Shown: positions 35,759 to 52,051 of the stretch, one piece after another | Layout: each line of letters opens with the position of its first letter | How positions within the stretch are numbered: the first letter of the stretch is position 1 | DNA from: a virus | Lineage: Duplodnaviria > Caudoviricetes | Virus record (IMG/VR): IMGVR_UViG_3300031993_000016 | Strand: one strand, 5' to 3' | Length of the DNA: 64,000 bases | Position numbers and translations under genes: made by a program | The notes under the pieces: model-generated | The model's input: the letters and a program-made list of their open reading frames with translations, nothing else | Databases searched by the model: none | What the model was told of the DNA's origin: nothing

Positions 35759-37576
35759 CTATACACGGAATTCATCAGGTCTATCTATCACTACAACATA
35801 TTCAGAAGACTTTCTAAAATGCGATTTCGACTTCAATTCTTCTACCACATTATCTTTATACTTCTCAGTTTTATCTACAACAAATACATATCGCTTACAC
35901 TTATAATGCTCTAATACAATATCAATCCATTCGTCACAAGTGTGAAATTCAGTTTCATTGTTATAGATTTCTTTTTTGTTATATGGTGGGCAGGTAAGTA
36001 GGCACGAGTATTCATAGTAGCTATCTAAAATGTTTTCAACAGTGACAGAAGCATTTGTTAAGCTGAAAAATTTTAATATCTCATGACTTTCAGATACTGC
36101 AGTTGAATTTAAATCTCGGCCTACATATTGTTTACCTGTAGAGCATACACCTAACAACCGTCCAGAAAATCCGGAAAACGGATCACAGATACAATCAAAA
36201 TCATTTAAGTATTTCAATGTTAAGTATTTAGCTAATATAGGATTAAACACAGACACTTTAGGTGCAATCTTAGATATGTTGAAACCGCTAAGTACTTTAG
36301 ATGGATCAACATCATTTTGATATATTAATCGGTTAGCTATACACTTCTTAAGCAATTCATCAGATTGCCATGCTTCATATGGAGATACATGACCATCGAC
36401 TTTACAGTGATAAATTGACGGATGAAACTTACGAATAACCGATATCCCCAGTTTGCAATACGGATTGTAAGATGTTGATGTATAGTCACACAGATGTGCA
36501 TAATCATAATAGAGTCGATCATCTGTGTAATTAGGGTACGGAAATTCAACAGACCTACACCAACTAAATATATGAGAATCATAATCAAATAAGTTATTAT
36601 CTATTTGCTTCAACATGTAAATCAAGTTAGATAATCCAGATTCAAAATCAGATTCTATTAACAACACAAATATATGATCATCTGGCACAAGTGAAACGCG
36701 AACATCATCATAATCATCTCGAACCTTCTCGCCACCAGGATCACTTATGTAAGAATGCCAATATATTCCATCACAGTCTATGAGCATCTTATATTTTGGT
36801 AAATACACATCAAATTCGTGCGAGCATGTACCATCGGTTAGCACATGATGCTCAACACAGTCAATGTTGAACTCTTGTAATATTGAATGTAATCGAGATT
36901 CCAGTTTGCTTAAGTTTTTAGAATTCCGTGATTGTTTAGCACGAAGCTCAGGGCACTGCATAGCATAAGGATAACCTGTGCGACTTATATTAGTTTGCAT
37001 AGTTTGCGCAATACATGCTGAACTTGTAACTGTATCGCGTATCTTGTCTCGTACTTCTGGTACCTGAGCAATATTAGTATATTTCGTCCCGTATTTCATT
37101 TGGATTGTTTTTATTTTAGCTGGTTCATTAGATATCGCTTTATCATGCAATAGCTGTCGAACAGAACTAGCTTGTGAAGCAACTTTAACACCATATTTTG
37201 CTAAACAGGTTTGTTCTCGGAGCTTATTTGAACATGCTTGAGAACAACATCTAATAGGGTCATATTCTAATTTTATTTCAACAGGAGTGCCGCATATAGG
37301 ACACGGATTAAAATGTTTATTGTCACAATAGCGTTGCATGCTACTTCTAGGTGCAAATAATTTACCGCATAGTTCACATTTCTTTAAAGTTTTAGCAATA
37401 GTTTGTTTACGAAGCTGTGCTGCACATTTTTTAGAACAGCATTGTTTAGGATGTTTATAATTCCATATGAAGCTAGATTGACATACAATACATCTTCGAT
37501 AATGAACATTGTTGCAATAAGCAGCAGTACCAACTCCTTCAAATGGTTGACCGCATTCTTTACAATATTTTATCAC
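35759..37576 (-). CDS. Zn-finger + Vsr/DUF559-like endonuclease + amino-DNA-methyltransferase-like fusion
   Basis: CxxC repeats; EFDVYLP...IDCDGIYWH; motif I DPFSGFSGRLLG...GRDLN; motif IV-like TCPPY. Confidence 0.75.
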   Translation of the reverse strand: MIKYCKECGQPFEGVGTAAYCNNVHYRRCIVCQSSFIWNYKHPKQCCSKKCAAQLRKQTIAKTLKKCELCGKLFAPRSSMQRYCDNKHFNPCPICGTPVEIKLEYDPIRCCSQACSNKLREQTCLAKYGVKVASQASSVRQLLHDKAISNEPAKIKTIQMKYGTKYTNIAQVPEVRDKIRDTVTSSACIAQTMQTNISRTGYPYAMQCPELRAKQSRNSKNLSKLESRLHSILQEFNIDCVEHHVLTDGTCSHEFDVYLPKYKMLIDCDGIYWHSYISDPGGEKVRDDYDDVRVSLVPDDHIFVLLIESDFESGLSNLIYMLKQIDNNLFDYDSHIFSWCRSVEFPYPNYTDDRLYYDYAHLCDYTSTSYNPYCKLGISVIRKFHPSIYHCKVDGHVSPYEAWQSDELLKKCIANRLIYQNDVDPSKVLSGFNISKIAPKVSVFNPILAKYLTLKYLNDFDCICDPFSGFSGRLLGVCSTGKQYVGRDLNSTAVSESHEILKFFSLTNASVTVENILDSYYEYSCLLTCPPYNKKEIYNNETEFHTCDEWIDIVLEHYKCKRYVFVVDKTEKYKDNVVEELKSKSHFRKSSEYVVVIDRPDEFRV

Positions 37577-37707
37577 TATAAATACCTCCTAACTAGACAC
37601 AAAATTATGTCACTAACTTTACATATATTTAACGATTTTATAGAAAAATGTCGACCACAATTGACTGCGGTCGACATATAATGAATCAACAACTTACTTT
37701 AAGAATT

Positions 37708-38936
37708 TTAGACTCTGAATTCATCTGGTCGCATGTAAATCGCTCTTGAAATTACAAGTGTTGTCTGGACTTTTACAAGGCCGCCTTCCTGATTCATGGT
37801 ACCGTTACTAAGACCTTGAATCCAGACACCTGGACACTTTATTACATCTCTTGCATTACCTTGACCATCATATTTGATAAAATACGCCTGCCTCATGTAC
37901 TCAGACGGCAGACCCATTTTTTCTGTCACCGGATTGTATACCTGCTTGCGCCATGCACGTAAACTCTCAAGAACGTTTGGCTCACAATAGCAGTTAAGTG
38001 TCCAATCAACATCTGCAAATGAAACTTTTCCAGGGAACTTGATGATTCCATTTCCATAATGTACTGTGATTGAGTCTTGGTCTTCTTTGATCTCACCTAC
38101 TTCGTCTGTTGAGAGTGTAAGTAGGTCACTGAATTCTGTTGGGGAACTTCCGTCCATATTGTATCTAATATCTTCAAATAGATTCGTGACATCTATCCGG
38201 CCTGTTACGGCTCCTCTTATTTTCATAAGATGTAGAGACTATATCATCACCTCATGTTGTTATGGGGGCTCGGCGCTACCACACGATTTTGTGGACTATA
38301 GTCGTTGAACCTTCCTCAGATCTTAAGGCTTGGCTGCTGATTGTCTAATCCAACTACTTTTTAAGCATTCACATCTATCTTTCTAGATTATGTTGTAGCA
38401 AGTTGGCTCTAAAGATTTTCCAGCAATTCACCGAGTTATTCGAAACATATTACTATGTTAAGGGACTAGATAAGTTAATCCTGATCTCGAAGTTATTTTG
38501 TGTCAATGGGACGAAGTTGTCGATACCTAACCAAGTTTGTTACGATGGCTCGCTACACCATCTCTCTTGCTTTCACAAGACGTTCAGACTATATTATCAT
38601 CTTAATATTAAGATGCTCACCCCTTCGAAGACGCTTGTCCTCTACTCCTTTCGGATAGTCGTTGAACCTTCCCTTACAGGCTTGGCTGCTGATTGCCTAT
38701 TGTATACGTGTTTAGGATTTAACCTTGCACTATCTAGATAAATTTTTTCTACTTTCGTCACCATCACGTTTACATCTAAATTAGATATTGCGTTGTGGTT
38801 TATCTAGCTTTAAGGTGTTCCAGCAATTCGATGAGTCTTTTATCATACAGATTTCTCTATACGCATACCTTAGATCACTTTAGCACTTTAAAGTGTTAAA
38901 AATATGGTTTGTGCCCATATAAAGTGGACTAAACAT
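37708..38936 (-). CDS. Tail tube protein (T4 gp19-like), spliced: join(38902..38936, 38478..38531, 37708..38164), 181 aa
   Basis: Spliced MFSPLYMGTNHMLGIDNFVPLTQNNFEIRIYNMDGSSP...YGNGIIKFPGKVSF...W; AGGAGG RBS before 38936; exons total 546 nt, in frame. Confidence 0.85.
38165..38477 (-). mobile_element. Group I intron 2 (IA-type, 313 nt, no ORF)
   Basis: Exon ends in U, intron ends in G; P GAATTGCTGGAA 38418-29; Q AATCAGCAGCC 38332-42; R GGTTCAACGACTA 38299-311; S GATATAGTC ~38237-45; P1 GGAU/GUCC. Confidence 0.9.
38532..38901 (-). mobile_element. Group I intron 1 (IA-type, 370 nt, no ORF)
   Basis: Exon ends in U, intron ends in G; P 38818-29; Q 38684-94; R 38656-68; S AATATAGTC 38587-95; P1 CAUAU/GUAUG. 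Confidence 0.9.
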
Positions 38937-39049
38937 ATTTTTTACCTCCTTGTGTATGTTTTATTTATACAAACATATATAAGGATGATGATAAAAATTT
39001 AATTTTGCATCGGTCATATATTTATTTACAAAGAAAAATTAAATATCAC

Positions 39050-39078
39050 TTGACAGTTTTAGAAAACAGCCATATAAT
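39050..39078 (+). promoter_or_regulatory. Perfect sigma-A/sigma-70 promoter
   Basis: TTGACA-17 nt-TATAAT, then GGAGG and ATG at 39104. Confidence 0.85.
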
Positions 39079-39103
39079 TATTATAGAGAGGAGGTGTAGT
39101 TAC

Positions 39104-40509
39104 ATGAAGTTTTGCACAAATTGCGGCGCACAGCTACCTGAATCAAATCGTCAGGACGATGTCGATCGTGTGCACAGAAAGCAGCAGTATCTAAACGAGA
39201 AGCTACATGTTTAGCACGATATGGTGCTAGAAATGTGATGCATATTGATAGGTTTGTTAAGAAAATCCAGCATACATTCTTAGAACGATACAATACAAAA
39301 TGTGCTATGGATGTACCTGAATTCAAACAAAAACAAGAAGATACTATGATAAAACTATATGATGTAAAATCGTATGTGCTTACAGATGAATATATGCAAA
39401 ATGCACATTTTAGAGAATCTAATACGCAGAAAGCTATAGCATCTAAATTGAATCAGATAAATATTCAAACAGGGTCAGAACTTTTGCTAGATGATAAAAA
39501 ATTTGATATCCCTATCTTAGGCACAAACATATTACTGGAAATAGATCCGTCGTACACGCATAACATAATCGGGAATCACTGGAATAAGAAAGGGTTAGAG
39601 GAAACCTATCATCTAAATAAAACAGCAATTGCAGCATCGCATGGCTATCACTGTTTACACGTATTTGATTGGGATAACATAGACGAAATAACTAGTAGAT
39701 TATGCATAACACAGAAAATAGCAGCAAGAAAATGTAAGGTGATCTTCCACAATGAACCAACTCCTACAGTCAATTTAATATATGAAGATAAAGTCATTCT
39801 ATCTGTACAAGCTCAGTTATCAAATATAGCAGCATACGAATATGAATTAACAATGATGTTTAAACCAAACATACAAGTGGTTGGTGGTGTAAGTCGAGCT
39901 ATCAAGCATATCATGCAACATCTACACACAAATAAAATATTTATAAAGTGTGATTTGTCAAAATTTTCTGGTGAATGCTATGAGAAAGCTGGTATGAAAG
40001 CAGTTGCAATAATACCTCCACAAGAACATTGGTCTAAGAGCATGTATGAAATGCAAATAGATGATAAAATAAATGCTGAAAAACTAATACAAGATCATTG
40101 GTTACCGGTTTACGACTGCGGATATGTAATATATAGTTATGTTGATGGTTATCCTACACAAACATCTCAACCTTCATTAAAAGAATACTATCAAACTATT
40201 GCGAACAGCATATCTAAATCAAAAGAAAGATTATGTGACTTTTGTCATCAGCCATTTATACCAGCATCTAACAGACAACGATACTGTAAACGTGTGCATA
40301 AGAGAATATGCCCTGTATGCGGAAAAGAATATGTAGAAGATAATGTTGAAAATTTGAAACGACCTCCAGTTGCGTGTTCATATGCATGCAGGGTGAAGAA
40401 AACTCAATCCACTAGTCTTGAACGATATGGATGCACCGCACCTGGTAATTCTACGCAAGCCAGAGAAAAAGCTAGAGAAACACGGCGAAACAAGCACATC
40501 TACAACTAG
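39104..40509 (+). pseudogene. Zn-finger/Vsr-like nuclease/GNAT-like family gene with a 1-nt frameshift near 39150
   Basis: MKFCTNCG...NR continues as SGRCRSCAQK...RYG in the -1 frame into ORF 39235..40509; LEIDPSYTH; WLPVYDCG; Zn fingers also at the C-terminus. Confidence 0.7.
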
Positions 40510-40532
40510 TCTATGTGATATAACACAAAATC

Positions 40533-40571
40533 ACCTCATATGTAGTCTTGTTATAAGATTACATATGAGGT
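40533..40571. terminator. Bidirectional terminator hairpin between convergent genes
   Basis: ACCTCATATGTAGTCTTG / TAAGATTACATATGAGGT. Confidence 0.7.
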
Positions 40572-40615
40572 AATATGTTAATGTTATGTGTTATATTTAT
40601 TTACGATGAGTTTTG

Positions 40616-41185
40616 TTATCTACGATGTAATGACTGCTGATATTTTTCAGCGCATTCACCTATGTAAGCAACTGCATCATCATAGTTAGTGAATATTTCA
40701 TCATTTATTCGTATATCTCTAACTTTCCATTTAACTCCAAGCTTTCTTGTAGTTGATTCACGGCGTTTTCGAATCCATTGTAATACATCTTCATCTTCAG
40801 TAGGTGAATGATTTGATATACGCAGGAATATCACGAATTTCATTGTACCTAGTACGTTTTGTTCTAGATCAGCTAATGTAAAGTATTTTGAAGTTTCGCT
40901 TGTCTTGCTTTCTGACTTTTCTAGAATAATTAGATTGTGATCTTCTAACTCTAAAATAGCTTCCGCAATGAATGCATGATAGTCTGCAAGTGTTTGAGCA
41001 TCTATTTTATCTCTATCGGCAGATATCATAGACGCAGCAACCTGTTCAACATCACGATCTAGTTCAACAATTATATCCATATTTAATTCATCGCTACGTA
41101 ACAATTTCTTCACAATCCTCCACCTCGCATCATATTTATCTTGAATACTATCAGTTTTGACTGATGGGTGTGTTATTGCATACAC
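40616..41185 (-). CDS. RISNH-motif family protein
   Basis: TSKYF...IFLRISNH; start uncertain. Confidence 0.7.
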   Translation of the reverse strand: MYAITHPSVKTDSIQDKYDARWRIVKKLLRSDELNMDIIVELDRDVEQVAASMISADRDKIDAQTLADYHAFIAEAILELEDHNLIILEKSESKTSETSKYFTLADLEQNVLGTMKFVIFLRISNHSPTEDEDVLQWIRKRRESTTRKLGVKWKVRDIRINDEIFTNYDDAVAYIGECAEKYQQSLHRR

Positions 41186-41195
41186 TATAACGATA

Positions 41196-41342
41196 TTACT
41201 TCTCAGATTTCTTAGCTTGTTGCTGTGATATCTTTATAGCTTGTCCTTGTTTAGTAGCTTTCTTTTTAGCATCTTTACCGTAATAGATTTTACCAGTTTT
41301 GCCGTATTGATAACCGCCTGATTTTGTTTCATGTACTGGCAT
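41196..41342 (-). CDS. Small basic protein
   Basis: MPVHETKSGGYQYGKTGKIYY...KQGQAI; GGAGG RBS. Confidence 0.65.
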   Translation of the reverse strand: MPVHETKSGGYQYGKTGKIYYGKDAKKKATKQGQAIKISQQQAKKSEK

Positions 41343-41347
41343 ATGAA

Positions 41348-41710
41348 TCACCTCCAAGCTACATTGAAATTCTTCTCTATGCCATTCCATAGATATGTGA
41401 GATGGCCATCTGGATATAAGCTGATATATGTAGAAGTAATCGGATTATTATCTTCTTGTGTTTGATAATAGCATCCATCGCCTTCATGTTCATACATCTT
41501 TGTGTATTCAACCCAAGTATTTGGATAGAGTTCGATTTCTATTGTTTGTGGATATTCTGCGTAATCGCAAAAGATATCATCAGTAGCTTCGATAGAATAA
41601 TTAGTTGCAGATTTGAAAGCATTAATCAAGTTCTTGGCTGCGATGCTACCATTTTGTATATTGTTCCTAGACTCATATAGAGCTTCAGGAACGTCTATGA
41701 TTACTTTCAT
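41348..41710 (-). CDS. Hypothetical protein
   Basis: RBS before MKVIIDVPE. Confidence 0.65.
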   Translation of the reverse strand: MKVIIDVPEALYESRNNIQNGSIAAKNLINAFKSATNYSIEATDDIFCDYAEYPQTIEIELYPNTWVEYTKMYEHEGDGCYYQTQEDNNPITSTYISLYPDGHLTYLWNGIEKNFNVAWR

Positions 41711-41739
41711 ATAATTACCTCCGTTTTTATGATTCCTTT

Positions 41740-41795
41740 TTGACGCACCCATCGGCTAAAGCCAATGGGATTCTTGCTTCACCGTGCGGTTGCAC
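41740..41795 (-). mobile_element. Orphan IS200/IS605 (TnpB-type) right-end remnant
   Basis: GTGAAGCAAGAATCCCATTGGCTTTAGCCGATGGGTGCGTCAA; 34/35 nt identical, inverted, to the IscB element end 17229-17263. Confidence 0.8.
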
Positions 41796-42205
41796 TATTC
41801 AGTAATTACTTTTGTAATTGCTTCTTCATATGAAATATTGTCCCAATATATTTTACCTGATTTATTTTCTACAGTTATTTTTGTGTTTCTAACAAATGGA
41901 CAAGTAAGTAAGAAATCTATGATTGGTTTGTACCAATTGAAATCTGCTGAAGTGATTCTGAATGTAAGCTTATTGTCCCACCATAATCTCACTTTGCACC
42001 AGTTTTGATTATATGTGTATAATATAGCTTGTTTTAATTCTTCAGCAGGGTTAGCTCGATATTGTTTGCAATTCCACTTGTCTAAATTAGAACCATATTC
42101 TGAAACTATATCTACAACGCTATCAAATTCAAATGATTCAGACGGATGCGCATATACATCTATGCAGTTGCCGGATCTATCTAATAACCATGCTCTGCTG
42201 AACAT
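41795..42205 (-). CDS. Hypothetical protein, leaderless paralog of 1..553
   Basis: WLLDRSGN..DV..HPS; FRITSADFNWYKPIID. Confidence 0.75.
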   Translation of the reverse strand: MFSRAWLLDRSGNCIDVYAHPSESFEFDSVVDIVSEYGSNLDKWNCKQYRANPAEELKQAILYTYNQNWCKVRLWWDNKLTFRITSADFNWYKPIIDFLLTCPFVRNTKITVENKSGKIYWDNISYEEAITKVITE

Positions 42206-42258
42206 ATTCTGTTACCTCCTTCATTATCTATAACGAATTTGATGTTGTAAAGTAGCTA

Positions 42259-42804
42259 TTAGAAAACTCCACCTTTATCAAAATAATCGTATTGACCTTC
42301 TTGAATACTTGTGCTATATATACGACATACACCTGGGTCACCAACTTGTAAGCAAGTGTTATATATGTACCAAGATTCAGCTAGCGGGTCAACATCTACT
42401 TCTTCAAAAGTTTCTTGGCTCCTTGGATCATCAACATATTTCATAAACGCATCGTTAACTGCATTTATAATCTGCATATCAGAACTGTATTGAGATGCAT
42501 CTATACCAAAAACTTCCTCTATATTCCAAGCCCACGCACCAAAATTGTTTATACTCCCGTTTCTAGGAGCTTCACCTACATAATAACCTTGATATGTAGG
42601 CCTATTACCGTTAGGAAATACTTCAACATAGAAAACATCCATATTACCTATTGATTTTCCTAAGACTTCAACTATAGCTTCGCTAGGATTATCACCACCA
42701 TACCACGTACTATATCCACTTTCATATCGTTCTCGATCGCATGTTACATAATCTTTGTTATCATCTGTATCTGTTACAGCAGATGATTTGATGTATCTTT
42801 TCAT
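42259..42804 (-). CDS. Acidic protein with MKRYIKSS leader
   Basis: ORF with RBS. Confidence 0.75.
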   Translation of the reverse strand: MKRYIKSSAVTDTDDNKDYVTCDRERYESGYSTWYGGDNPSEAIVEVLGKSIGNMDVFYVEVFPNGNRPTYQGYYVGEAPRNGSINNFGAWAWNIEEVFGIDASQYSSDMQIINAVNDAFMKYVDDPRSQETFEEVDVDPLAESWYIYNTCLQVGDPGVCRIYSTSIQEGQYDYFDKGGVF

Positions 42805-42819
42805 ACATATGTCTCCTTT

Positions 42820-43149
42820 CTATATCATATAATGACCACGTCTCTGCAAACTAGCTTTAGCTGCACGTTTTACACGACCCCAATCATGTGCTGCAAGATC
42901 TTCAAGAACTTCTACAGGTGTATTTGGATTATCAGCAACGCTGCGTCGCACATCTGGATAGTAATCATTTGCAAGTTTACTAAGGACGTCTGCAGGTGTA
43001 CCTGGATTTTGTGCAACCATTTGTCTTACAGCTACATGTTCATGACGTGCAAGTTGTGCAAGAATATCTGGAGCAGTTGTTTCATCTCTTGCCAGGTCAC
43101 GTATCTTATCTATACCTGTTAGGGTAGAAGATCTAATGTATCGTTTCAT
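42820..43149 (-). CDS. LRV/HEAT-like repeat protein with MKRYIRSS leader
   Basis: Three ~24-aa repeats, VR..VA.NP.TP..VL..LA.D. Confidence 0.8.
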   Translation of the reverse strand: MKRYIRSSTLTGIDKIRDLARDETTAPDILAQLARHEHVAVRQMVAQNPGTPADVLSKLANDYYPDVRRSVADNPNTPVEVLEDLAAHDWGRVKRAAKASLQRRGHYMI

Positions 43150-43372
43150 GCACTACCTCCTTGGACTGAGCTAATCTATCTACTATTGCATCATATGCTC
43201 TTCTTAAATCATCTTCAGACATTGTTACATAATATCTTACATAATATCCTTCATCTGGATCACTGTCGTCTTCAGAAGCACCATACTGGTCTAGAATAGA
43301 TTCTATAAGTTCATATTCATGAGATTCTTCAATCAACATATCTATCGCATCCATGTATTCTTCACGTGTCAT
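43133..43372 (-). CDS. Small acidic protein
   Basis: ORF with RBS. Confidence 0.65.
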   Translation of the reverse strand: MTREEYMDAIDMLIEESHEYELIESILDQYGASEDDSDPDEGYYVRYYVTMSEDDLRRAYDAIVDRLAQSKEVVHETIH

Positions 43373-43382
43373 ATTACACCTC

Positions 43383-43592
43383 CTACAAATATATTCGCTT
43401 ATCTCTACGAAGAGTACTTGTCATCTTCTCTACATCTTCGAGTACAGATGCAAGTCCCATATCAGTTAAATCATTTGCATGATTTGCAAACTCAGTTGCA
43501 TACTCTATAAGTTCTTGAAGTTCAATATCTAGATCATCTGCCATTCTAGATCTTGATCTAGCATCATTTGATGCTGTGATTATCTTTTTCAT
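43383..43592 (-). CDS. Small helical protein with MKKIITAS leader
   Basis: ORF with RBS. Confidence 0.7.
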   Translation of the reverse strand: MKKIITASNDARSRSRMADDLDIELQELIEYATEFANHANDLTDMGLASVLEDVEKMTSTLRRDKRIYL

Positions 43593-43646
43593 AAACTATC
43601 TCCTTATCTATCACCTTATATTTATTTACAAAGGTGGTGATTATTA

Positions 43647-44291
43647 TTGTACAATAACGAAAAACGCATTGAAACTAATCTACTTAAATATAAGGTTCAA
43701 AATGTAGCCCAGCTTCCAGAAATTCAAGAGAAGCGACGAAAGACATTTGAGACAAAGAGAACTACTATTCTATTCTATCAAGAGCCTCGTGTTAATGTGA
43801 TTGATGGACATGATTTAACTGTATATCGTCTCAATAAAGATGTAGCAGACTGTTGGCTCAATAAGTATCATCCATTTAAAGCTCCAAAAGGTAATGTGTT
43901 ATGTTTAGGGTTAGTTAAAGATGACATTATATATTGTATAATGACATTTAAGAAATCACGTGATTCTCAATATGTAGCAGAGTTATCTCGCCTTTGGATG
44001 CTTCCAACCTATCAAATTATAGGTGGATACGATATTCTTTCAAATGAAGCGTCTCAATTAGGCCTGTACAATATTGTTGCTTATGTCAATATGTCATTTG
44101 AGAATTATAAAGATTATGAGTCGATTGGTATGAAGTATGTTAGAGATGTGCAGAGAACGAAGTGGTGGGTTAGAGGTGATGCGAAGATATCAGATGCTTC
44201 TCGTCGTCAATCAAAATTAAAACAGGAAGATATGACCGCTTCTGGATATCTTCCTGTATATGATTGTGGTATTAGGGTTTATGTGGTGTGA
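43647..44291 (+). CDS. Stand-alone Mom-like GNAT-fold domain protein (no nuclease domain)
   Basis: KYKVQNVAQLPEI repeat; WLNKYH...LGL...MTF...ELSRL...IIGG...YLPVYDCG, matching the C-domain of 45419..46942. Confidence 0.65.
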   Translation: MYNNEKRIETNLLKYKVQNVAQLPEIQEKRRKTFETKRTTILFYQEPRVNVIDGHDLTVYRLNKDVADCWLNKYHPFKAPKGNVLCLGLVKDDIIYCIMTFKKSRDSQYVAELSRLWMLPTYQIIGGYDILSNEASQLGLYNIVAYVNMSFENYKDYESIGMKYVRDVQRTKWWVRGDAKISDASRRQSKLKQEDMTASGYLPVYDCGIRVYVV

Positions 44292-44312
44292 TCATTGATT
44301 CAAAGGCTGTGT

Positions 44313-44636
44313 TTACCTAACGAATCCAATCTCAAGTTCTCTGCATTTCTGCAGGAAAAGATCACGAAGTTCTTCAGTACCTTCATAATATTGAGCGATT
44401 TCAATTAATTCATCATCACCCCAATCATCAATATTGAATGTTATATTATTGACCATATGCTCAAATGTTTCATTATCTAAAGGTCCACCAATATCAAACT
44501 TATACCCCTCAAGAATGTCAGTAACTACATCTTCAAGTTCATTGACATTATAAACAGCATCCTCGCCTTTCACATACTTCTTATTTGTTCCGCATGATGC
44601 CTTTACACTCTGTGGATATACTTTAAATCTTTTCAT
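44313..44636 (-). CDS. Acidic protein with MKRFKVYPQSVKAS leader
   Basis: ORF with RBS. Confidence 0.7.
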   Translation of the reverse strand: MKRFKVYPQSVKASCGTNKKYVKGEDAVYNVNELEDVVTDILEGYKFDIGGPLDNETFEHMVNNITFNIDDWGDDELIEIAQYYEGTEELRDLFLQKCRELEIGFVR

Positions 44637-44720
44637 TGTTTGCGTTCCTCCTATATAATAATATGTAATATACCATGATCAACAGCTTCATTGATCTATA
44701 AATATAAGTTGAGCTAGAAT

Positions 44721-45014
44721 TTAAACTAACTCCATTATTTGCATCATTGTATGGGCCATCCTCTGATGTTTAGCTGAAACTTTTTCAGGTACTTTATCTT
44801 CAGGATATGCAGTGTTTAATGCATAAGTTATATCGTCTTCATCAATCGAACGAGCGTATTTTAAAGATGACTCTACAAGATCACATTTATAATAGCTCCA
44901 ATGATATTTGTCTCGGAGTATCATATATATTGCGCCGCGAATTTCAGCAACATTACTTGGGTCGTCTACTTTGTAGATGTTATTGTCTATTGTTGATTTG
45001 ATAAATCTTTTCAT
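44721..45014 (-). CDS. Protein with MKRFIKST leader
   Basis: ORF with RBS. Confidence 0.7.
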   Translation of the reverse strand: MKRFIKSTIDNNIYKVDDPSNVAEIRGAIYMILRDKYHWSYYKCDLVESSLKYARSIDEDDITYALNTAYPEDKVPEKVSAKHQRMAHTMMQIMELV

Positions 45015-45105
45015 TGTGCGTTTACTCTCCTTGTCTATTAGATTCTTCTACTTATATGATCTCTGTATCTTCTCTTTATACATCTGACGAACTTAATCAT
45101 TTATA

Positions 45106-45313
45106 TTAAAGGTTGTTATTAAGTTGATATTCCCATCTTATTACTCCGGAATCAAATACTTGAACATATCCGTGAGACTCCATGACTCCTCGCTCTGTAT
45201 AGTTAGCGTCATGTAAATCATCAAATAAGTTTGGTAAATTAGATTTTTGACATTAATCTACGTGATGATTTAGTTTCAAATTCATCACCGCATATTGCAC
45301 AGATTCGTTTCAT
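45106..45313 (-). pseudogene. Internally deleted relic of the Zn-finger/nuclease/GNAT family
   Basis: RBS + MKRICAICGDEFETKSSR joined out of frame to CQKSNLPNLFDD...ESHGYVQVFDSGVIRWEY, matching the C-terminus of 46954..48852. Confidence 0.85.
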
Positions 45314-45348
45314 TATAGATACCTCCATGAAAGTTTATATTGAAAGGA

Positions 45349-45388
45349 AGTAATCTAGAATTCATGGCTTCTAGAAACACTGGCCGGT
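45349..45388 (-). repeat. Conserved ~40-nt element, copy A
   Basis: ACCGGCCAGTGTTTCTAGA-N10-TCTAGATTACT. Confidence 0.85.
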
Positions 45389-45418
45389 GCTGTCCTTCCT
45401 ACAATATCTGTAACGATT

Positions 45419-46942
45419 TTAGGTTAAACTACCATATACATACACCGCTTGTCCGCAATCATAAACTGGTAACCACCCGTTATCTAACATGAGCTGCTCA
45501 TTAGAAGTACCTTTACCATAATTGGCACCAAATAACTGATCATAACCACGCTGATTAAGCAGATTCTGTGTGATCTTTTTATCATCTTTTGACCATATTT
45601 TATTAGGTTCAGCAATGTATGTCAATTGCATACCAATTGCTTCATATACATCCCCACGAAACTTTGCTAAATCGCAATATGATATAACAGAATCATTCAG
45701 ATGATCTGATCGAAAATGTTTGAATAGTTTAGACGCGCCTCCTATGATTCTATACCTTGAACGCGTACATAATCTAAGTAATTCAAAATTATACTTATTA
45801 TTATATCTAGGTTTTCCAAATGTCATCAATTGCATAAGCTGATTGTCATAATATAACCCATAACAAATCTCTTGCCCTTTACAACTACCCTGAATATGAA
45901 ATTGCGCTGTAAATTTATTAGCATCAGATTTAGATACCTGTCGAATTTCACAATTTCTTGCATAAATAGATGTCTTAGGTATTAGCATATTAAGAATATC
46001 ATCCCAATTATCCCAATCAAATACATGAATACATCTGTACCCATTATCTAAAGCAAGTTTAGTCTTAGTTAAATGATAATTAGGATCTAATCCATCAGAA
46101 TCCCAATGATTACCAAAAGAATTATGCGTATATGTAGGATCAATTTCAATGAGTATGTCACCTGATTTAAGATCATAAGAACATTTATCTATGTGAAATT
46201 CAAATTCAAATTCAATGTTATTCGCTTCAAGCACGTCTCCGAAGCGTTTATTTATATTAGAAATAACAGATGAAGCATTTCGGCATTCGTCTCGCATACA
46301 ATTATAAGGTACACCATATTTATCTAAGCAAACTTGGGTAATCTTTTGCTTTACAATAGGATTTTGCGATGGATTAGAATAACCCGTTTCACGTAGCCGA
46401 TTTGATACAATCTTTGAGCGAATTTCAGGTACAGCTAACACGTTTTCGTAGCCGTATCTTTCTAAATTGGTTTGTTTGGCCTTTTCATGTATTGTATCAC
46501 ATTGAAGCGGGACTCTTACACCATAATGAGATTCAACCGAATCCTGTTGTTTAGAATGAATTTCAGATACTTGCATTGGGTTATCTACACCATACGTATC
46601 TTGAAAATGTTGTTTTATTTTTGATTGAATCAAGACAGATTTACTAGGATTATCAACACCATAGCGTTCTATACAAGTAGCTCTTATCCTTGCTTTAACT
46701 TCTTGCAACTGATTTGGATTATCTACACCATATTTCAATTGCATAGTTTTCTTACGAGATAGATTACCTAATTGTTGCCCACATTTCAATGAACAAGTTT
46801 TAGATGTGTATGGAGGTTTTCGTATAAAAGTTTCTCCACATACACAACAAACAGAAGTGTGCTCAGATTTACACACTTCTGCTCGTTTACTTTTAGCAAC
46901 AAATTGTTTACCACACAATTTACATATCTTAATATATTCCAT
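45419..46942 (-). CDS. Zn-finger + YGV.NP repeats + Vsr-like endonuclease + Mom-like GNAT domain (Hef-like)
   Basis: CKLCG; (K/R)YGVDNP repeats; YDL...IEIDPTYTH; YARNCEIR...HIQG...ELLRLC...GGASKLF...WLPVYDCG; RBS favours ATG 46942. Confidence 0.75.
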   Translation of the reverse strand: MEYIKICKLCGKQFVAKSKRAEVCKSEHTSVCCVCGETFIRKPPYTSKTCSLKCGQQLGNLSRKKTMQLKYGVDNPNQLQEVKARIRATCIERYGVDNPSKSVLIQSKIKQHFQDTYGVDNPMQVSEIHSKQQDSVESHYGVRVPLQCDTIHEKAKQTNLERYGYENVLAVPEIRSKIVSNRLRETGYSNPSQNPIVKQKITQVCLDKYGVPYNCMRDECRNASSVISNINKRFGDVLEANNIEFEFEFHIDKCSYDLKSGDILIEIDPTYTHNSFGNHWDSDGLDPNYHLTKTKLALDNGYRCIHVFDWDNWDDILNMLIPKTSIYARNCEIRQVSKSDANKFTAQFHIQGSCKGQEICYGLYYDNQLMQLMTFGKPRYNNKYNFELLRLCTRSRYRIIGGASKLFKHFRSDHLNDSVISYCDLAKFRGDVYEAIGMQLTYIAEPNKIWSKDDKKITQNLLNQRGYDQLFGANYGKGTSNEQLMLDNGWLPVYDCGQAVYVYGSLT

Positions 46943-46953
46943 ATTGATACCTC

Positions 46954-48852
46954 CTACATAGGTATAATAAGAGAGTAATCTAGATGATGTAGGCATCTAG
47001 AAACACTGGCCGGTTGATTAGAGGAAGGCGTGTATTCCCATCGGATAACTCCTGAGTCAAATACACGACCATATCCATGAGCTGTCATTATTTCAACTTC
47101 AGTATTGTGTTCGACATCAATAGTATCATCGCGAAGCAGCTTCTTAAGATTAGATTTCTGACATGTTACTCGATTATAATAGCATTCAGAATTCGGATCA
47201 ACCCATACGTATCCCGGATCTGATCGATGTATTTCAACAAAGCCTAAAATCTTGTAAAGATTTCCAGAAGTAGTGGCAATATCGGAAAAAGAAACGATTT
47301 TATCAGGATACCAATGTCTACAGAAGTAGCTGAATAGTTTGCTTGCACCTCCTACAACATTGTAATTTAACTTAGAACAAAATCTAGACAACTCCCAGCT
47401 ATCTTCATTGTTGATCCGACCACTTAAATTTCGCATTTTACCAAATGTCATGAGAGAAACTAATTCATCGTTATCATAAAGACCTAACCGTATGGAACAC
47501 GTAGTAGGACCTTGTCTATGATTGATGCGAAGAAACTCTCGAGCATCTGACCAACTAACTTCTCTTAGGTGCAAGTTCCGTGCAAATAGTTTACGAGTTG
47601 TGTTACCTAATGCATTTCGTAACATGGAAACCATGATATCTTTATGATTAACCCAATCGTATCCAAATACATGTATAAGTCGAATACCTGCTTGCTGTGC
47701 CAAATCTGACTTATCCTTATGATAAGATTTAGGTACAATATTACCTTCATGCATGAATGCAATATCGGAATTGTGCGTCCATGTAGGATTACACTCAATT
47801 CCAAGCTTATAATCCGGCAAGTAAATATCAATTTCATAAGGGCTTATGATAGATCTAGAATGCGGTATAATAACTGCATCAGGTACGGTTGTATGTATGA
47901 TGTTGGTGATATCTTGCTCCATATTAGATATGTTACATTGTACCAAATCATGTAAACAGTATTTTACTATGTAATATGATATAGTTGTGTCACAGACTCC
48001 AGTAGATTCGGATAGTTCCTTATAAGTTGGTTTATGATCAAATTGAGTTAGTATGTAATTTTTAGGATCTGATTTAAATTGTTCGTAGTAGTTATATCTA
48101 TCGGGATTTACTACAGTTGTTTTCAGATACTCCGGTGAAAATATATAAGCAGGGCCTCCATATTTTTTAAAGTTAGTTTCAGTGCGTTGTTTGATGATTT
48201 CATCAGCTTGTGCTGCATATTCTACACCATAACGCTTTAAGCATGTAGCTTTCACTTTAGCTTGAATATCTTCATTGGATAGCGCATTCTCATGACCATA
48301 ACGTTCTAAATTAGTGGATTGTATATGTTGTCGTAACTCCTCAGATTGCATAGGTGATGCAACTCCATATTTATCTAGCATACCTTGCACCATTCGAGCC
48401 CGTATTTCCGGATCTTTAGAATAATGATCTACACCATAAAGTTCTAAACTATGTTGTTTTATTCTTTCTTGAATCTCAGCACTTTGAGATAAATTATCTA
48501 CACCATATCGAGATTTTACAGTCTGATGAACCTTTTCTTTAATATCACTGCGCTGTAGTGGATTAGCTGCTCCATATCGTTCTAAATTAGTAGCTTCTCG
48601 TTTCTGTTGAGCTTGTAATTTAGCTTCAGCAGATCTATTTTGATGTCCCTCGGAAATAACAATCTTTCGGCATTCTGAACATGTTCGAGGCCCATATTTC
48701 ATATAATTTACATAAGATTCTTTTACTAACAACGGTTGGCCGCATCGAGCGCATGGTCTATAATGATCATCTCCACAAGACTGTGCTTTTGCAGAATGCG
48801 CCATAAAAACTTTACCACACCATACACATTTTCTTTCACCATAGTTTCGCAT
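46954..48852 (-). CDS. Zn-finger + YGV.N repeats + Vsr-like endonuclease + Mom-like GNAT domain (Hef-like)
   Basis: CVWCG; about seven (R/K)YG repeats; EIDIYLP...IECNPTWTH; HRQG...ELSRFC...GGASKLF...VFDSG. Confidence 0.75.
   Translation of the reverse strand: MRNYGERKCVWCGKVFMAHSAKAQSCGDDHYRPCARCGQPLLVKESYVNYMKYGPRTCSECRKIVISEGHQNRSAEAKLQAQQKREATNLERYGAANPLQRSDIKEKVHQTVKSRYGVDNLSQSAEIQERIKQHSLELYGVDHYSKDPEIRARMVQGMLDKYGVASPMQSEELRQHIQSTNLERYGHENALSNEDIQAKVKATCLKRYGVEYAAQADEIIKQRTETNFKKYGGPAYIFSPEYLKTTVVNPDRYNYYEQFKSDPKNYILTQFDHKPTYKELSESTGVCDTTISYYIVKYCLHDLVQCNISNMEQDITNIIHTTVPDAVIIPHSRSIISPYEIDIYLPDYKLGIECNPTWTHNSDIAFMHEGNIVPKSYHKDKSDLAQQAGIRLIHVFGYDWVNHKDIMVSMLRNALGNTTRKLFARNLHLREVSWSDAREFLRINHRQGPTTCSIRLGLYDNDELVSLMTFGKMRNLSGRINNEDSWELSRFCSKLNYNVVGGASKLFSYFCRHWYPDKIVSFSDIATTSGNLYKILGFVEIHRSDPGYVWVDPNSECYYNRVTCQKSNLKKLLRDDTIDVEHNTEVEIMTAHGYGRVFDSGVIRWEYTPSSNQPASVSRCLHHLDYSLIIPM
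46974..47014 (-). repeat. Conserved ~40-nt element, copy B
   Basis: ACCGGCCAGTGTTTCTAGA-N11-TCTAGATTACT. Confidence 0.85.
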
Positions 48853-48970: not shown

Positions 48971-51151
48971 TTAGCTTAATGAACTAAGATCAATACCTGC
49001 ACCGGCAGGTAATGCAATAAGATCTACGTAAATATCGTTTATAACTCCATTTACTAGGAGCCAAATTTTTCCAATAACAGTGTTAGCATTAACATGATCT
49101 AATTCATCAATGTCCGCTGACATCTGAACACGATAGCCATCGATTGCACCAACATTCTTCATTGTATCAAGAAGTGGTGTCACACCTGCATAAAACTTAT
49201 TATAAGCCTGACCATTATTATATTGGAATGTGATGCTTATTCCGCATTTGTAAACTACATCTTCTACTGCATTTACTAAGAAACGAGTTGAAAGATTTGC
49301 AAGTGCCTGATAAGTTGCAGGAGGTACTTCAAATAATGTTGAGTTACCCCAGATGTTTGTGCCGAGGTCTGGGATTGTTGTAAGTACGTTTACAGATACT
49401 CCGTCAAGTTTCTGCCATTTATCAAGTAATTTCTTTGGTACTGTGTAATCAAGTTTTCCAATTCTTACATTGTGTTGTCTATTTGTTGGAAGTGCCCATT
49501 CATACTGTGTAGGCTGATTGAGGATCTGTGCTCTTTGTATCATAAGTGCTGCGAATGAAGGAGATGCTTCACTCATTCTGCTTGTACCTACATACTGGAA
49601 TTGTGTCCATGGTGCAAAGAATCCACAATGTGTGTGGAAGAGTGATCCATTTACATCAAGTGCTGCGTTTACAGGTGTTACACGAGCTAACATCTGTACA
49701 TAACCTGCACGATCTGGATTAGCTTCATCCTCAATGTGAACGAACTTTCTTTCTACCATATGCGGTACATCAATGTAACCTGTTGCACATCTGCTGTAGT
49801 ATGCTACGTCCATTATCTTAAGGTTAAGCGGAGAGACTGGAATTGGACAAGATCCTGATGATGGTGTAGGATAATATGTACTGATGATTGTAGAATTATC
49901 TGTATACATGAAATAATCTTGATCATCCCAACCTGGGCTTATTACACGATTCGGGTTGTAAGAAAGTTTGTCTTTGAGAAGATCAAATACACCACCTACA
50001 GGCTGTCCATTTGAATCAACATAAGTACCGCCTACAAGATGTGTAAATAACCATTCTCTATAGTATAATGAACATTTTGTATCGTCATCAAGTGCAGCTT
50101 GTACAGTTGAATCAGCAACAGCGGTTGGATACGTATAAGTAGCTGAATTTGCAGCTACTTGGTAAGCTTCTGCCCAATCATATCTAGGTTTTGCAATGTT
50201 TTCAAATGACATTGTTCCGCTAGTATATGTTGTGATATAATCTGTACCAGCAGTAGCTGTTGTACTTCCAAGTATAGCAGCTGTACCAGTTGATGGAACT
50301 TCATCCCACTTTGTAGCGTCCCAGGCACCTGTTGTATCATCAGCCTTGCATTTATATACGTTACATTCATGATATACAAGTGCATCTTTTGCATATGTAG
50401 CAGTTGCATCAAATGCTGTAACCCCTGCAGTAGATACTACAATGTCCGCAGAAGTTGAAGACTCATCAACTGTACCAGTGATATTTGTAATATCCCAGAA
50501 CTTAGATTCAACTTCTTTGTAGTAAAGAATACTGTCTGTTGAATTAGCAGCATTGAATACAAGTGTCTTTGACTCAGCTGCAGTTTTTACACCACTAGAA
50601 TCTACAATATAAGTAATAATGTTCCAATAGAACTTAGTTGTTTGTGACTCCCTATCATAATAAGCAACTTTGCTAACTACAATCTGGAGATTATTTCCAA
50701 ATGTTCCAGGATACTTTGCTCTGAAACTGATAGTAGCTGCACTATCTGTATTATTCTTATACTGATACTGCGTAAAGCTGCCCTGTGCATAAGTTCCAGG
50801 GCACAGACGACATACAAGTATATCATAACCAGCAGTGAGTAATGTAGTTGCTATCTGATATGAATAATCTTTTGCAAGTCTATAACCTGCAGCAGGTCCA
50901 CGATAAGTAGATACAAATGCATCAAGTCCTGCCTGTGTAGCAGGAAATCGCTGCCAAGCGGTTTGCTCAAGCATATCGCTTACAGCATCACCATATCCAG
51001 CCCCACTTGGCTGAATACCAGAAGCAGCAGTTGGATCAAAGTATCCAGGACCCCAGCAAGATGTAATTGGAAGTGCTACGGTAGCATATCCACCATCTCC
51101 AACAGCCCAAGAATAATTTGTGCTGATTTCATTTATGACAATTTTAGCCAT
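48971..51151 (-). CDS. Tail sheath protein
   Basis: WGP; AKYPGTFGNNLQI; IWGNSTL...LSTRFL...FQYNN...GAIDGYRV...GKIWL C-terminal sheath domain. Confidence 0.9.
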   Translation of the reverse strand: MAKIVINEISTNYSWAVGDGGYATVALPITSCWGPGYFDPTAASGIQPSGAGYGDAVSDMLEQTAWQRFPATQAGLDAFVSTYRGPAAGYRLAKDYSYQIATTLLTAGYDILVCRLCPGTYAQGSFTQYQYKNNTDSAATISFRAKYPGTFGNNLQIVVSKVAYYDRESQTTKFYWNIITYIVDSSGVKTAAESKTLVFNAANSTDSILYYKEVESKFWDITNITGTVDESSTSADIVVSTAGVTAFDATATYAKDALVYHECNVYKCKADDTTGAWDATKWDEVPSTGTAAILGSTTATAGTDYITTYTSGTMSFENIAKPRYDWAEAYQVAANSATYTYPTAVADSTVQAALDDDTKCSLYYREWLFTHLVGGTYVDSNGQPVGGVFDLLKDKLSYNPNRVISPGWDDQDYFMYTDNSTIISTYYPTPSSGSCPIPVSPLNLKIMDVAYYSRCATGYIDVPHMVERKFVHIEDEANPDRAGYVQMLARVTPVNAALDVNGSLFHTHCGFFAPWTQFQYVGTSRMSEASPSFAALMIQRAQILNQPTQYEWALPTNRQHNVRIGKLDYTVPKKLLDKWQKLDGVSVNVLTTIPDLGTNIWGNSTLFEVPPATYQALANLSTRFLVNAVEDVVYKCGISITFQYNNGQAYNKFYAGVTPLLDTMKNVGAIDGYRVQMSADIDELDHVNANTVIGKIWLLVNGVINDIYVDLIALPAGAGIDLSSLS

Positions 51152-51448: not shown

Positions 51449-52051
51449 TCATTCTTGTATATCTACTTCGTGCGCCATTCGTTTTAATTTAGCTGGTGTA
51501 TAAGTTACTAAAACGGCACCATCAATATGTAGTTGAATTGTAGCTGAATAGAGCTTGCCCTCTTGTAGATAATTAGATGAAGTAGTTTGACGTTCTATAT
51601 TTGTAGATGGATCAATTCTAACACCAAATCGAATCTTACGCTTAGATTCATAAGGTATTTTAAATGTTATGAAATACTGACTTGTGTATTTAAATAATAA
51701 TTCACGAATCAATTCATCAATATCTGCAGTATTTGTAGCCATACATACAAGATCATAATCTAGTTTAATTGGAAGTACTTTCTCATAGTATAATTCATTA
51801 GTTTTCTTGTCAAATACAGTGGCAACACCTTCATGTAACCTAGTGTAGTTTAGTCGATCGTTATCAACAGGTGTATCGTCATGTCGGTTAACTGCAATCA
51901 CAGGAAACTTGATTTTGTCTTCTTGTACCTGTGCTGCAATAGTTAACACACTATCAGGTGATACTATATACACTGCAGGCTCTTGTCCAGGTTCTACTGC
52001 AAAAGATTGTCGTAAATCTGCAACTATTGCGTTATCGTATGCCCAAAGCAT
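51449..52051 (-). CDS. Putative tail terminator / neck protein (gp15-like)
   Basis: IKFPVIAVNR...PIKLDYDL...DELIRELLF; between portal and sheath. Confidence 0.55.
   Translation of the reverse strand: MLWAYDNAIVADLRQSFAVEPGQEPAVYIVSPDSVLTIAAQVQEDKIKFPVIAVNRHDDTPVDNDRLNYTRLHEGVATVFDKKTNELYYEKVLPIKLDYDLVCMATNTADIDELIRELLFKYTSQYFITFKIPYESKRKIRFGVRIDPSTNIERQTTSSNYLQEGKLYSATIQLHIDGAVLVTYTPAKLKRMAHEVDIQE

Follow-up and report, generated by a model that had tools for sequence, protein, structure and literature searches.

Free-standing Hef-type homing endonuclease genes with Mom-like or methyltransferase domains between the tail sheath and tail tube genes of an uncultured gut phage

Hef-type genes of the sheath–tube interval

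The stretch of DNA analysed in this study (64 kb, hereafter the window) belongs to an uncultured gut phage. In the 13-kb interval between its tail sheath and tail tube genes, three intact genes, one frameshifted gene and one nuclease-less gene of the Hef-type family are found along with one deletion relic and one extra arm fragment. When 50,697 phage records were searched with this region by megablast, there were zero matches, indicating a phage without a close cultured relative, and matches of the tail sheath protein in IMG/VR were limited to an inserted sheath domain. The features of the interval are as follows.

35759..37576 (−): methyltransferase (MTase)-type gene, intact, encoding 605 aa and adjoining the tail tube gene on its 3' side; its arm has four CxxC pairs and three 34-aa repeats
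~36656-36856, within it: Vsr-type nuclease with the D-C-D-G-x-Y-W-H motif
35762-36601, within it: helical domain and methyltransferase, C-terminal DPFSG...TCPPY
35759..35782 (−): second copy of RPDEFRV-stop, with which the MTase-type gene ends; a terminator hairpin comes next
37708..37731 (−): end of the tail tube gene, RPDEFRV-stop (last seven codons and stop), left copy of the duplication
39104..40509 (+): Mom-type copy, frameshifted, in divergent orientation from the tube gene
40190-40509 (+): arm fragment of a further copy, fused in frame to the 39104 copy as its last ~100 residues
43647..44291 (+): nuclease-less gene, 214 aa, with one repeat and a Mom-like GNAT
45106..45334 (−): Mom-type deletion relic; leader, start codon and first zinc knuckle run directly into the last ~48 codons, in a different frame
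45419..46996 (−): Mom-type Hef gene, intact (PHROG 3339, 1e-78; DUF7487, 2.7e-29)
46954..48852 (−): Mom-type Hef homing endonuclease gene, intact, encoding 632 aa and adjoining the tail sheath gene on its 3' side; zinc ribbons and seven 23-aa repeats (residues 85-245)
~47611-47928, within it: nuclease core
~47017-47583, within it: Mom-like GNAT

All six family members that a preliminary description had claimed within these 13 kb are present, and the N-terminal arm fragment at 40190-40509 is a seventh piece. A tblastn search with the paralogs gave no further copies in the rest of the 64-kb window. Pairwise identity among the paralogs is only 22-30%, which excludes recent duplication and means that the copies are old or were acquired independently.

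The proteins of the genes at 46954 and 45419 have the same organization, namely CxxC zinc ribbons, a set of seven repeats that are each exactly 23 residues long and have a (K/R)YG core, the nuclease core and the GNAT domain. The 46954 protein (AF2 model, pLDDT 88.8) matched PHROG 3339 'homing endonuclease' at 2e-110 and DUF7487 at 3.8e-34, and its ortholog lies at the equivalent place in the relative L007 with 76% identity. Neither the 45419 gene nor the 45106 relic is found at the equivalent position in L007. The true start of the 45419 gene is probably the ATG at 46942, preceded by GGAGG, which would give a product of 507 aa; the gene has its own leader of ~60 nt, which the leader alignment showed to be common to the relic. 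The earlier view of 45106 as a relic is confirmed, as an internal deletion in a 46954-like copy has brought residues ~20 and ~565 together out of frame, and its tail has 57% identity to residues 564-612 of the 46954 gene.

The frameshift of the 39104 copy lies near 39142-39214, within the first zinc ribbon, and may be an assembly error. Its nuclease motif is intact and its GNAT is degenerate (R111->M in Mu Mom numbering, N-terminal strands missing). In the relative L008, the gene lying upstream of the tube has an N-terminus with 56% identity to the fused arm fragment, whereas the body of the 39104 copy has 26% identity to that gene. The gene at 43647, previously described as GNAT alone, was correctly seen to be without a nuclease; however, it also carries one repeat, and it is a conserved gene rather than a by-product. 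It has a C-terminal match to PHROG 3339 / 559, the substitutions S124->D and D149->N (Mu Mom numbering) in its GNAT and an ortholog in the relative L011 with 78% gapless identity. Its dN/dS is 0.14, compared to 0.056 for the tube gene. Being conserved and under purifying selection, it is no wreck, and it could be a trans-acting immunity gene or a regulatory offshoot.

Nuclease, Mom-like and methyltransferase domains

Sequence comparison assigns the genes to a known family, the Hef-type (Vsr-like, 'EDxHD') free-standing homing endonucleases. This family has more than 4000 metagenomic relatives, and 432 phage records matched in tblastn, frequently with the annotation 'Hef' or 'homing endonuclease'. 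The nuclease columns D, E/D, H and H are invariant in both homolog alignments, and the nuclease core in both AF2 models is formed by a helix, three strands, a helix and a strand. Pfam Vsr was matched by 21 of the 45 MTase-type homologs (best 5.2e-5), and a profile match to I-Bth0305I (3R3P) was obtained for the MTase type (E 0.019). Hef-type enzymes belong to the Vsr-like EDxHD family (PMC3239194), and the Hef of phage U5 cleaves nrdB (PMC2988022).

The C-terminal domain of the Mom-type proteins was compared with Mu Mom (PDB 8BV8), a Gly-tRNA-dependent adenine N6 modifier. The best two Foldseek matches were chains A and B of 8BV8 (1.5e-6). In VIA-align, a PDB-wide search with the Mom-type model gave a list filled by GNAT matches; the matches of the 46954 GNAT had Z values of 12-14, and Mom itself aligned with Z 12.2 (rmsd 2.8, 148 aligned residues, identity about 17-18%). 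More residues of the domain align to Mom than to ordinary GNATs. Structure search alone found Mom, which was not retrieved by PDB sequence searches with single proteins or with the Mom-type profile. Against Pfam Mom (PF25680) the window proteins scored 19.6-20.9 bits, below the gathering cut-off of 27.1, and 26 of 46 homologs matched it at E<=0.1 (best 9.7e-12); matches to PHROG 1384 'Mom-like' were found at 6e-10 and 3e-10. In Mu Mom, a helix-turn-helix-like insertion before the last strand is essential. In the Mom-type model, two helices (277-284 and 296-302) lie between strands where, judged by position, this insertion would be expected; the GNAT fold is common to both proteins, and a helical insertion between the last strands may be so too. 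In contrast to Mu Mom, the window domain is fused to a nuclease and has not kept R151 and Y59.

Residues of Mu Mom were mapped using hhalign with the family profile and a MAFFT alignment; hhalign, run with Mu Mom as a single sequence, aligned the two plausibly but without significance (probability 0.5%), and served for mapping only. The 46954 and 45419 proteins keep six of the seven functional residues, namely the counterparts of H58, R111, S124, D149, Y159 and W181, and these are invariant or at least 90% conserved in 46 homologs. The roles of these residues in Mu Mom, where R151 is also essential, are described in PMC13219725. The counterpart of R151 is missing in all four GNAT copies of the window (I, L, L and M), and most homologs have an R adjacent to the Asp at this position.

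The AF2 model of the 35759 protein (pLDDT 86) matched amino-methyltransferases in the Foldseek search of the PDB, the closest solved structures to the domain being the RNA amino-methyltransferases PH1948/METTL5, Trm11 and RsmD. In BFVD it matched viral N4-cytosine DNA methylases and a VSR endonuclease (5.7e-5). Pfam N6_N4_Mtase was matched at E<=0.1 by 41 of the 45 MTase-type homologs, and by the 35759 protein itself with 17 bits, below the cut-off of 26.7. The class-I SAM fold and motif I (DPFxG) of PF01555-like amino-methyltransferases are present, whereas motif IV is TC(P/S)PY, with Cys where (D/N/S)PP(Y/F) has D/N/S, so the chemistry of the methyltransferase may be unusual. DPFxG and TCPPY are invariant across the 45 MTase-type sequences, and TC[PS]PY is present in 234 of 267 MTase-type proteins. 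The module is matched at E<=1e-30 by 275 clusters (50% identity); the proteins have 450-830 aa, with the module almost always at the C-terminal end. The MTase version of these nucleases is widespread, and no description of it was found in the searchable literature. Hence, the domain calls of the preliminary description, which were a Vsr-like nuclease (Pfam Vsr in homologs, I-Bth0305I profile match and BFVD), a C-terminal GNAT (Mu Mom as best Foldseek match) and an alternative amino-methyltransferase of class I (Foldseek, Pfam in homologs and BFVD), are in agreement with our results.

Nuclease–modifier pairing, arm exchange and insertion sites

The Hef nuclease signature is present in 117 of 119 Mom-type proteins and the Vsr signature in none of the 119; among MTase-type proteins the Vsr signature is found in 174 of 266 and the Hef signature in 0 of 266. 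A mixed combination of nuclease subtype and modifier was not found among the 385 proteins. As the two types carry different nuclease subtypes, the modifier has not been swapped alone on a constant nuclease. The idea of an interchangeable modifier in the same slot, taken from the preliminary description, is imprecise, as the unit of exchange is the nuclease plus the modifier jointly. An example is the L011 gene on the 3' side of the tube. The arm of this gene is 50-53% identical to the same-site MTase-type arms, whereas its effector is 57% identical to the 45419 effector and unrelated to the MTase effector. Judged from these alignments, it is a natural chimera in which the zinc-finger/repeat arm belongs to the genomic site, while nuclease and modifier have been exchanged as a unit. 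Depending on the relative, the site 3' of the tube is occupied by an MTase-type gene, a 546-aa Mom-type gene or a 487-aa Mom-type gene. These differing occupants, together with insertion footprints and decay products, support the earlier reading of the genes as selfish elements.

The two RPDEFRV-stop copies are identical at 17 of 24 bases and all differences are synonymous. The copy at 35759..35782 is likely the tube 3' end in its original form and marks where the insertion took place; among the other 44 MTase-type homologs, a C-terminus no more than a few residues away from ...V(V/I)ID is found in most, and a tube-tail peptide ending in P0129 alone. A duplication of this kind is also present in the relative L010, there as an exact 27-nt repeat. 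The duplicated ends mark the likely target of the MTase type. Since the copies in the window differ at 7 of 24 bases, the sequence difference alone could confer immunity.

Proposed cut-and-protect function and its alternatives

The reading which we favour, and hold to be reasonably probable, is that these are free-standing Hef-type homing endonuclease genes which have repeatedly invaded the sheath–tube region of a widespread gut-phage clade and which act by cut-and-protect. The arm, consisting of zinc ribbons and 23- or 34-residue repeats, would most likely read a long DNA site in or beside a conserved virion gene. It is joined to one of two effector forms: in one, the nuclease is of the Hef subtype and the modifier is a Mom-type GNAT; in the other, a Vsr-subtype nuclease is accompanied by a helical domain and an amino-methyltransferase. 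During mixed infection, the nuclease would cut genomes without the gene, and repair would copy the gene in; on the carrier genome, the tethered modifier would mark a base in or close to the recognition site, and this modification is proposed to spare the carrier. The whole would resemble a type IIG restriction-modification enzyme made of one chain, but with a site of great length; cleavage specificity, DNA modification and protection are all three what we infer here. Points that count against this reading are the absent R151 counterpart, the scores of the window proteins below the Pfam cut-offs for Mom and N6_N4_Mtase, the Cys of motif IV and the immunity that the base differences between the tube-end copies could give by themselves. 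As a more tentative proposal, Hef-type enzymes in general might consist of an exchangeable locus-specific arm and a cognate effector, the nuclease subtype being matched to the modification that blocks it (Mom-type acylation or methylation); homing elements would then have, in site-directed base modification, a general means of self-immunity that has not been described before.

The coupling of nuclease and modifier would also suit a broad inter-genome weapon, in which genome-wide marking leaves the nuclease to degrade unmodified host or superinfecting-phage DNA, in the manner of classical restriction-modification, instead of performing site-specific homing. Such a function has been predicted in print for the jumbo-phage Mom-REase fusions (Iyer et al. 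2021; PMC7824862), and Mu Mom modifies many adenines (PMC13219725). However, the window genes show hallmarks of homing (free-standing genes beside virion genes, site replacement, end duplications and relics), their long locus-specific arms suggest long and rare sites, and six divergent systems in 13 kb would be odd for genome-wide marking, so that we consider a weapon unlikely. Another rather unlikely explanation is a modifier without protective role, serving as a base-flipping recognition or dimerisation module or acting on RNA, protein or host DNA. The proximity of the methyltransferase to RNA-modifying enzymes and the missing R151 are in line with it, and a nuclease-less copy which has two catalytic substitutions and is still under purifying selection implies that the fold is useful without Mom chemistry. 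Against this, the catalytic motifs of both types are (nearly) invariant in 45-46 diverse homologs, which at the sequence level argues for catalysis, and the best annotated viral-model matches are the N4-cytosine DNA methylases.

The modifier may further be seen as beneficial cargo, shielding the phage DNA from host restriction and fused so that selection retains the element. Anti-restriction is the known role of Mom (PMC13219725; PMC7261163), and homing endonucleases can help phages via linked genes (PMC13096335). This explanation appears very improbable, as free shuffling among nuclease types would be expected from it, yet mixed combinations are absent among the 385 proteins, and a tether to a site-specific arm would restrict genome-wide protection.

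The proposed cut-and-protect homing elements can be compared with several known systems. Known Hef and Hef-like enzymes include Hef of phage U5, F-LimIII/VII/VIII/X of Dickeya phage LIMEstone1 and those of Campylobacter CP220/CPt10 and Klebsiella RaK2/K64-1 phages. The Hef-like enzymes are homologous to the window Mom-type proteins over the whole protein (28-34% identity, 80-96% coverage) and have common PHROG/Pfam families and a Vsr-like nuclease with the window genes. In LIMEstone1 and the Campylobacter phages, as in the window, free-standing genes adjoin the sheath and tube genes. In contrast to the Hef-like enzymes, one window copy has a methyltransferase effector and a more canonical Vsr-type nuclease, a form which was not found in the literature. 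Fusion of such a nuclease to Mom, in multiple copies in large phages, and the restriction-modification-like 'momylation' prediction of cut-and-protect were already reported by Iyer, Anantharaman, Krishnan, Burroughs and Aravind in 2021 (PMC7824862). Their jumbo-phage fusions have the same REase-fold nuclease and Mom-family GNAT in several copies per genome; they were read as defence/offence systems, whereas the window genes are read here as homing elements, and that account is without the methyltransferase counterpart, the nuclease-modifier coupling and the arm/effector shuffling. Our study adds the MTase version, the strict pairing, the arm/effector chimera, the tube-end duplications and the conserved GNAT-only gene.

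Type IIG enzymes (BpuSI, MmeI) are the closest working analogy for cut-and-protect, and not a class to which these genes belong; in their genomes, the latter behave as homing elements. Both have a single chain with a PD-(D/E)xK-superfamily nuclease, a helical connector and an MTase with motif I before motif IV, and BpuSI (3S1S) aligned distantly with the 35759 model over 525 columns at rank 32 of the Foldseek search. Sequence homology to type IIG enzymes was undetectable, and no domain follows the MTase, hence a C-terminal target-recognition domain is lacking; here the zinc-ribbon/repeat arm at the N-terminus would provide recognition.

The usual view is that a homing endonuclease does not cut the genome that carries it because insertion or sequence drift destroys the target. 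Sandegren and colleagues reportedly found in 2005 that Hef cuts the DNA of its own phage as well as DNA without the gene, which counts against the cut-and-protect reading. The duplicated tail-tube 3' end is a concrete candidate target, which makes the cut-and-protect idea testable with cloned genes. If the target is instead protected by a tethered modifier in these very common phage elements, homing elements would be linked to restriction-modification systems. It would also give a second biological role to Mom-type DNA acylation and a natural two-part scaffold in which a programmable arm is joined to a cut-and-mark effector.

Homing endonuclease genes between tail sheath and tail tube

The window, with a GC content of 35%, comes from an uncultured tailed phage, and no close relative was found among the deposited phages searched with it. 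The coordinates of the six family members listed in the preliminary description were confirmed, and all lie inside or adjoining the interval between the tail sheath and tail tube genes, which are 11 kb apart on the minus strand. No family copy was found in the rest of the 64-kb window. The genes are named by their start coordinates.

48971-51151, minus strand: tail sheath gene
46954-48852: intact Mom-type gene (Hef-subtype nuclease with Mom-like GNAT domain)
45419-46996: intact Mom-type gene, start probably at 46942
45106-45334: relic with an internal deletion, out of frame
43647-44291: one repeat and GNAT domain, without nuclease
39104: gene with a frameshift in the first zinc ribbon and a degenerate GNAT domain
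37708-38226 and upstream, minus strand: tail tube gene
35759-37576: intact MTase-type gene (Vsr-subtype nuclease, helical domain and methyltransferase)

The structure of 45106 bears out its earlier description as a relic, and the GNAT domain said to stand alone at 43647 indeed lacks a nuclease and is accompanied by one repeat. The GNAT-like C-terminus claimed for 45419, 46954 and 39104 is present in all three, with that of 39104 decayed; the terminal ~100 residues of the 39104 gene are an arm fragment (N-terminal zinc ribbons and repeats) from a further copy. Identity between the window paralogs is only 22-30%.

The 46954 and 45419 proteins matched PHROG 3339 'homing endonuclease' at 2e-110 and 1e-78, respectively. 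Mom-type proteins match Pfam DUF7487 and 432 phage records, many labelled Hef, Hef-like or homing endonuclease, including Campylobacter CP220/CPt10, Klebsiella RaK2/K64-1 and Yersinia JC221, and a large protein collection contains 4072 relatives of the 46954 protein at E<=1e-5. A Vsr-like nuclease core is indicated because Pfam Vsr was found in 21 of 45 MTase-type homologs, a profile search matched 3R3P (E 0.019), a BFVD match is named 'VSR endonuclease' and the secondary-structure order in both AlphaFold2 models fits such a core. The Vsr-like EDxHD family takes in Hef-type enzymes and I-Bth0305I (PMC3239194), nrdB is cleaved by the phage U5 Hef (PMC2988022), and in Dickeya phage LIMEstone1 Hef-like genes are listed adjoining tail tube and baseplate genes (PMC3296691). 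We are confident that the window elements are homing endonuclease genes.

Both intact Mom-type proteins carry seven 23-residue tandem repeats with the core (K/R)YG-x-x-N/P, at residues 85-245 in 46954 (window 48120-48600) and 81-241 in 45419 (window 46274-46756), and three 34-residue repeats occur in the 35759 protein; counts among the paralogs are 7, 7, 3, 2 and 1. A leader of ~60 nt (ACCGGCCAGTGTTTCTAGA...TCTAGATTACT) is common to the 45419 gene and the relic immediately 5' of GGAGG, and the final 22 residues of the 46954 protein, of low confidence, are translated across it. At 40-90 nt 5' of homing endonuclease genes, the window and two other contigs have a short AATCGTTA(T/A) motif, possibly a common (late?) promoter element.

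45322-45400 and 46945-47010, minus strand: shared leader copies
~48880 and ~37620, minus strand: AATCGTTA(T/A) motif in the window
~4670 and ~6590 in contig L008, ~1030 in contig L010: AATCGTTA(T/A) motif

In the sheath, an inserted segment at residues ~203-289 is the sole part with IMG/VR contig matches (36-60% identity); the remaining sheath sequence gave no IMG/VR match. The window tube ORF (window 37708-38936 region) has a late start, with 172 aa against 181 residues in relatives, and spans ~92% of homologous tube proteins.

The Mom-like and methyltransferase domains

The 46954 protein was modeled with AlphaFold2 over residues 290-632 using 45 homologs (mean pLDDT 88.8). The GNAT/Mom-like nature of the C-domain was examined by structure search of this model, in which Foldseek placed both chains of Mu Mom (8BV8) at the top of the PDB matches (1.5e-6), with ordinary acetyltransferases below them. 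VIA-align gave a GNAT fold (Z 12-14), and the alignment to Mom (Z 12.2, 18% identity) was the longest of the top matches at 148 residues. Mu Mom moves glycine from Gly-tRNA onto adenine N6 and requires H58, Y59, R111, S124, D149, R151, Y159, W181 and a helical insertion (PMC13219725). In the 46-sequence alignment, six of these residues have counterparts in columns (H, R, S, D, Y, W) that are invariant or at least 90% conserved, and all six are present in 46954 and 45419. Owing to these residues and the best structural match being Mu Mom, the domain is a true Mom relative, and in the intact copies it is probably an enzyme. At the R151 position most homologs have an R beside the Asp, and the four window copies have I, L, L and M; the R111 counterpart is lost in the 39104 copy. 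In the 43647 gene (214 residues), S124 is replaced by D and D149 by N. Its ortholog in the related contig L011 is gapless and 78% identical, with a dN/dS of 0.14 versus 0.056 for the tube, and we judge from sequence that 43647 is a maintained gene despite the two catalytic substitutions.

At E<=1e-3, 631 relatives of the 35759 protein were found; identity to the best 120 is 40-58%, over ~79-100% of the 35759 sequence and for most of them over 88-100%. In the model of residues 206-605 (pLDDT 86), the nuclease core is accompanied by a helical domain and a class-I SAM fold. Structural neighbours of this model in the PDB are amino-methyltransferases (PH1948/METTL5, Trm11, RsmD), and BpuSI, a type IIG enzyme, ranks 32nd. 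The best annotated matches among viral models are N4-cytosine DNA methylases and Pfam N6_N4_Mtase is found in 41/45 MTase-type homologs, in agreement with the amino-methyltransferase call made earlier. DPFxG and TCPPY are invariant in the homolog alignment. Of 267 proteins, 207 have TCPPY as motif IV and 27 have TCSPY, with Cys at a position that is usually D, N or S. The helical-plus-methyltransferase module, searched against the full library, matched 275 clusters at E<=1e-30; it is almost always C-terminal, in proteins of 450-830 residues. Lak megaphages carry the same module on a zinc-ribbon protein without nuclease. In Prevotella phage Lak-C1 (L009, 1376-3280) this protein has 634 residues, with zinc ribbons, a K/E-rich linker, the module with motif TCSPY and no recognisable nuclease. 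Within the searchable library, we found no paper linking Hef/EDxHD enzymes with a fused methyltransferase, and none naming CPPY together with methyltransferase.

Insertion, exchange and the role of the modifier

RPDEFRV* closes both the window tube gene and the MTase-type gene; 7 of the 24 bases differ between the copies, every change being synonymous, and a separate hairpin and T-run follow each copy. In most MTase-type homologs the C-terminus is no more than a few residues from ...V(V/I)ID, and P0129 is the only one besides the window gene to finish in a tube-tail peptide. L010, an independent contig, has YLKPEDLR* at the end of both its tube and its MTase-type gene, and the encoding DNA is an exact 27-nt direct repeat. 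Because of these duplicated tube ends, the insertion is placed within the final 7-8 codons of the tube gene, where the target of the MTase-type gene probably lies. Across relatives, three different gene types occupy the site 3' of the tube. Contig L007 has the 46954 ortholog after the sheath, lacks the 45419 gene and relic there, and carries two HNH genes that the window is without; these HNH/NUMOD4 homing endonuclease genes (5034-5669 and 6249-6821) lie between conserved genes, with none in window 51452-53272, and are further evidence of a clade full of mobile nuclease genes. The proposal that the elements are selfish is sustained by insertion footprints, decay products and changing occupants at the tube site.

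Mom-nuclease enzymes are already published: Iyer et al. described five in one phage and proposed that phage DNA is shielded by momylation and that the nuclease is directed against host or superinfecting DNA (PMC7824862). The window analysis adds that, in the sequences compared, nuclease subtype pairs strictly with modifier type. E-x-(D/N)-P-x-x-(T/S)-H occurs in 117/119 Mom-type and 0/266 MTase-type proteins, whereas D-x-D-G-x3-H occurs in 174/266 MTase-type and 0/119 Mom-type proteins. In L011, whose tube is 85% identical to that of the window, a Mom-type gene lies 3' of the tube. The arm of this gene has 50-53% identity to the same-site MTase-type arms (window, L008 and L010) and only 31% to the 45419 arm, whereas its effector (C-terminal nuclease and modifier) has 57% identity to the 45419 effector and is unrelated to the MTase effector. 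By these comparisons, the arm tracks the locus and the effector is exchanged as one unit. The earlier suggestion of interchangeable modifiers calls for a correction: both types occur at the same tube site, and what is exchanged there is nuclease and modifier together.

Self-protection of the element has several points weighing against it, namely the missing R151 counterpart in the window copies, the recoded window tube end and the unusual methyltransferase motif. Hef, moreover, is said from the 2005 work of Sandegren and colleagues to cut the DNA of its own phage in vitro, which again weighs against it. A modifier with a non-protective role and a weapon acting genome-wide in the manner of restriction-modification are both improbable rivals, and carriage of the modifier as anti-restriction cargo is less probable still. 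We favour nuclease and modifier as a functional pair because the two are coupled and both catalytic centres are conserved, and we propose that self-protection through site-directed modification would be the simplest account of this pair.
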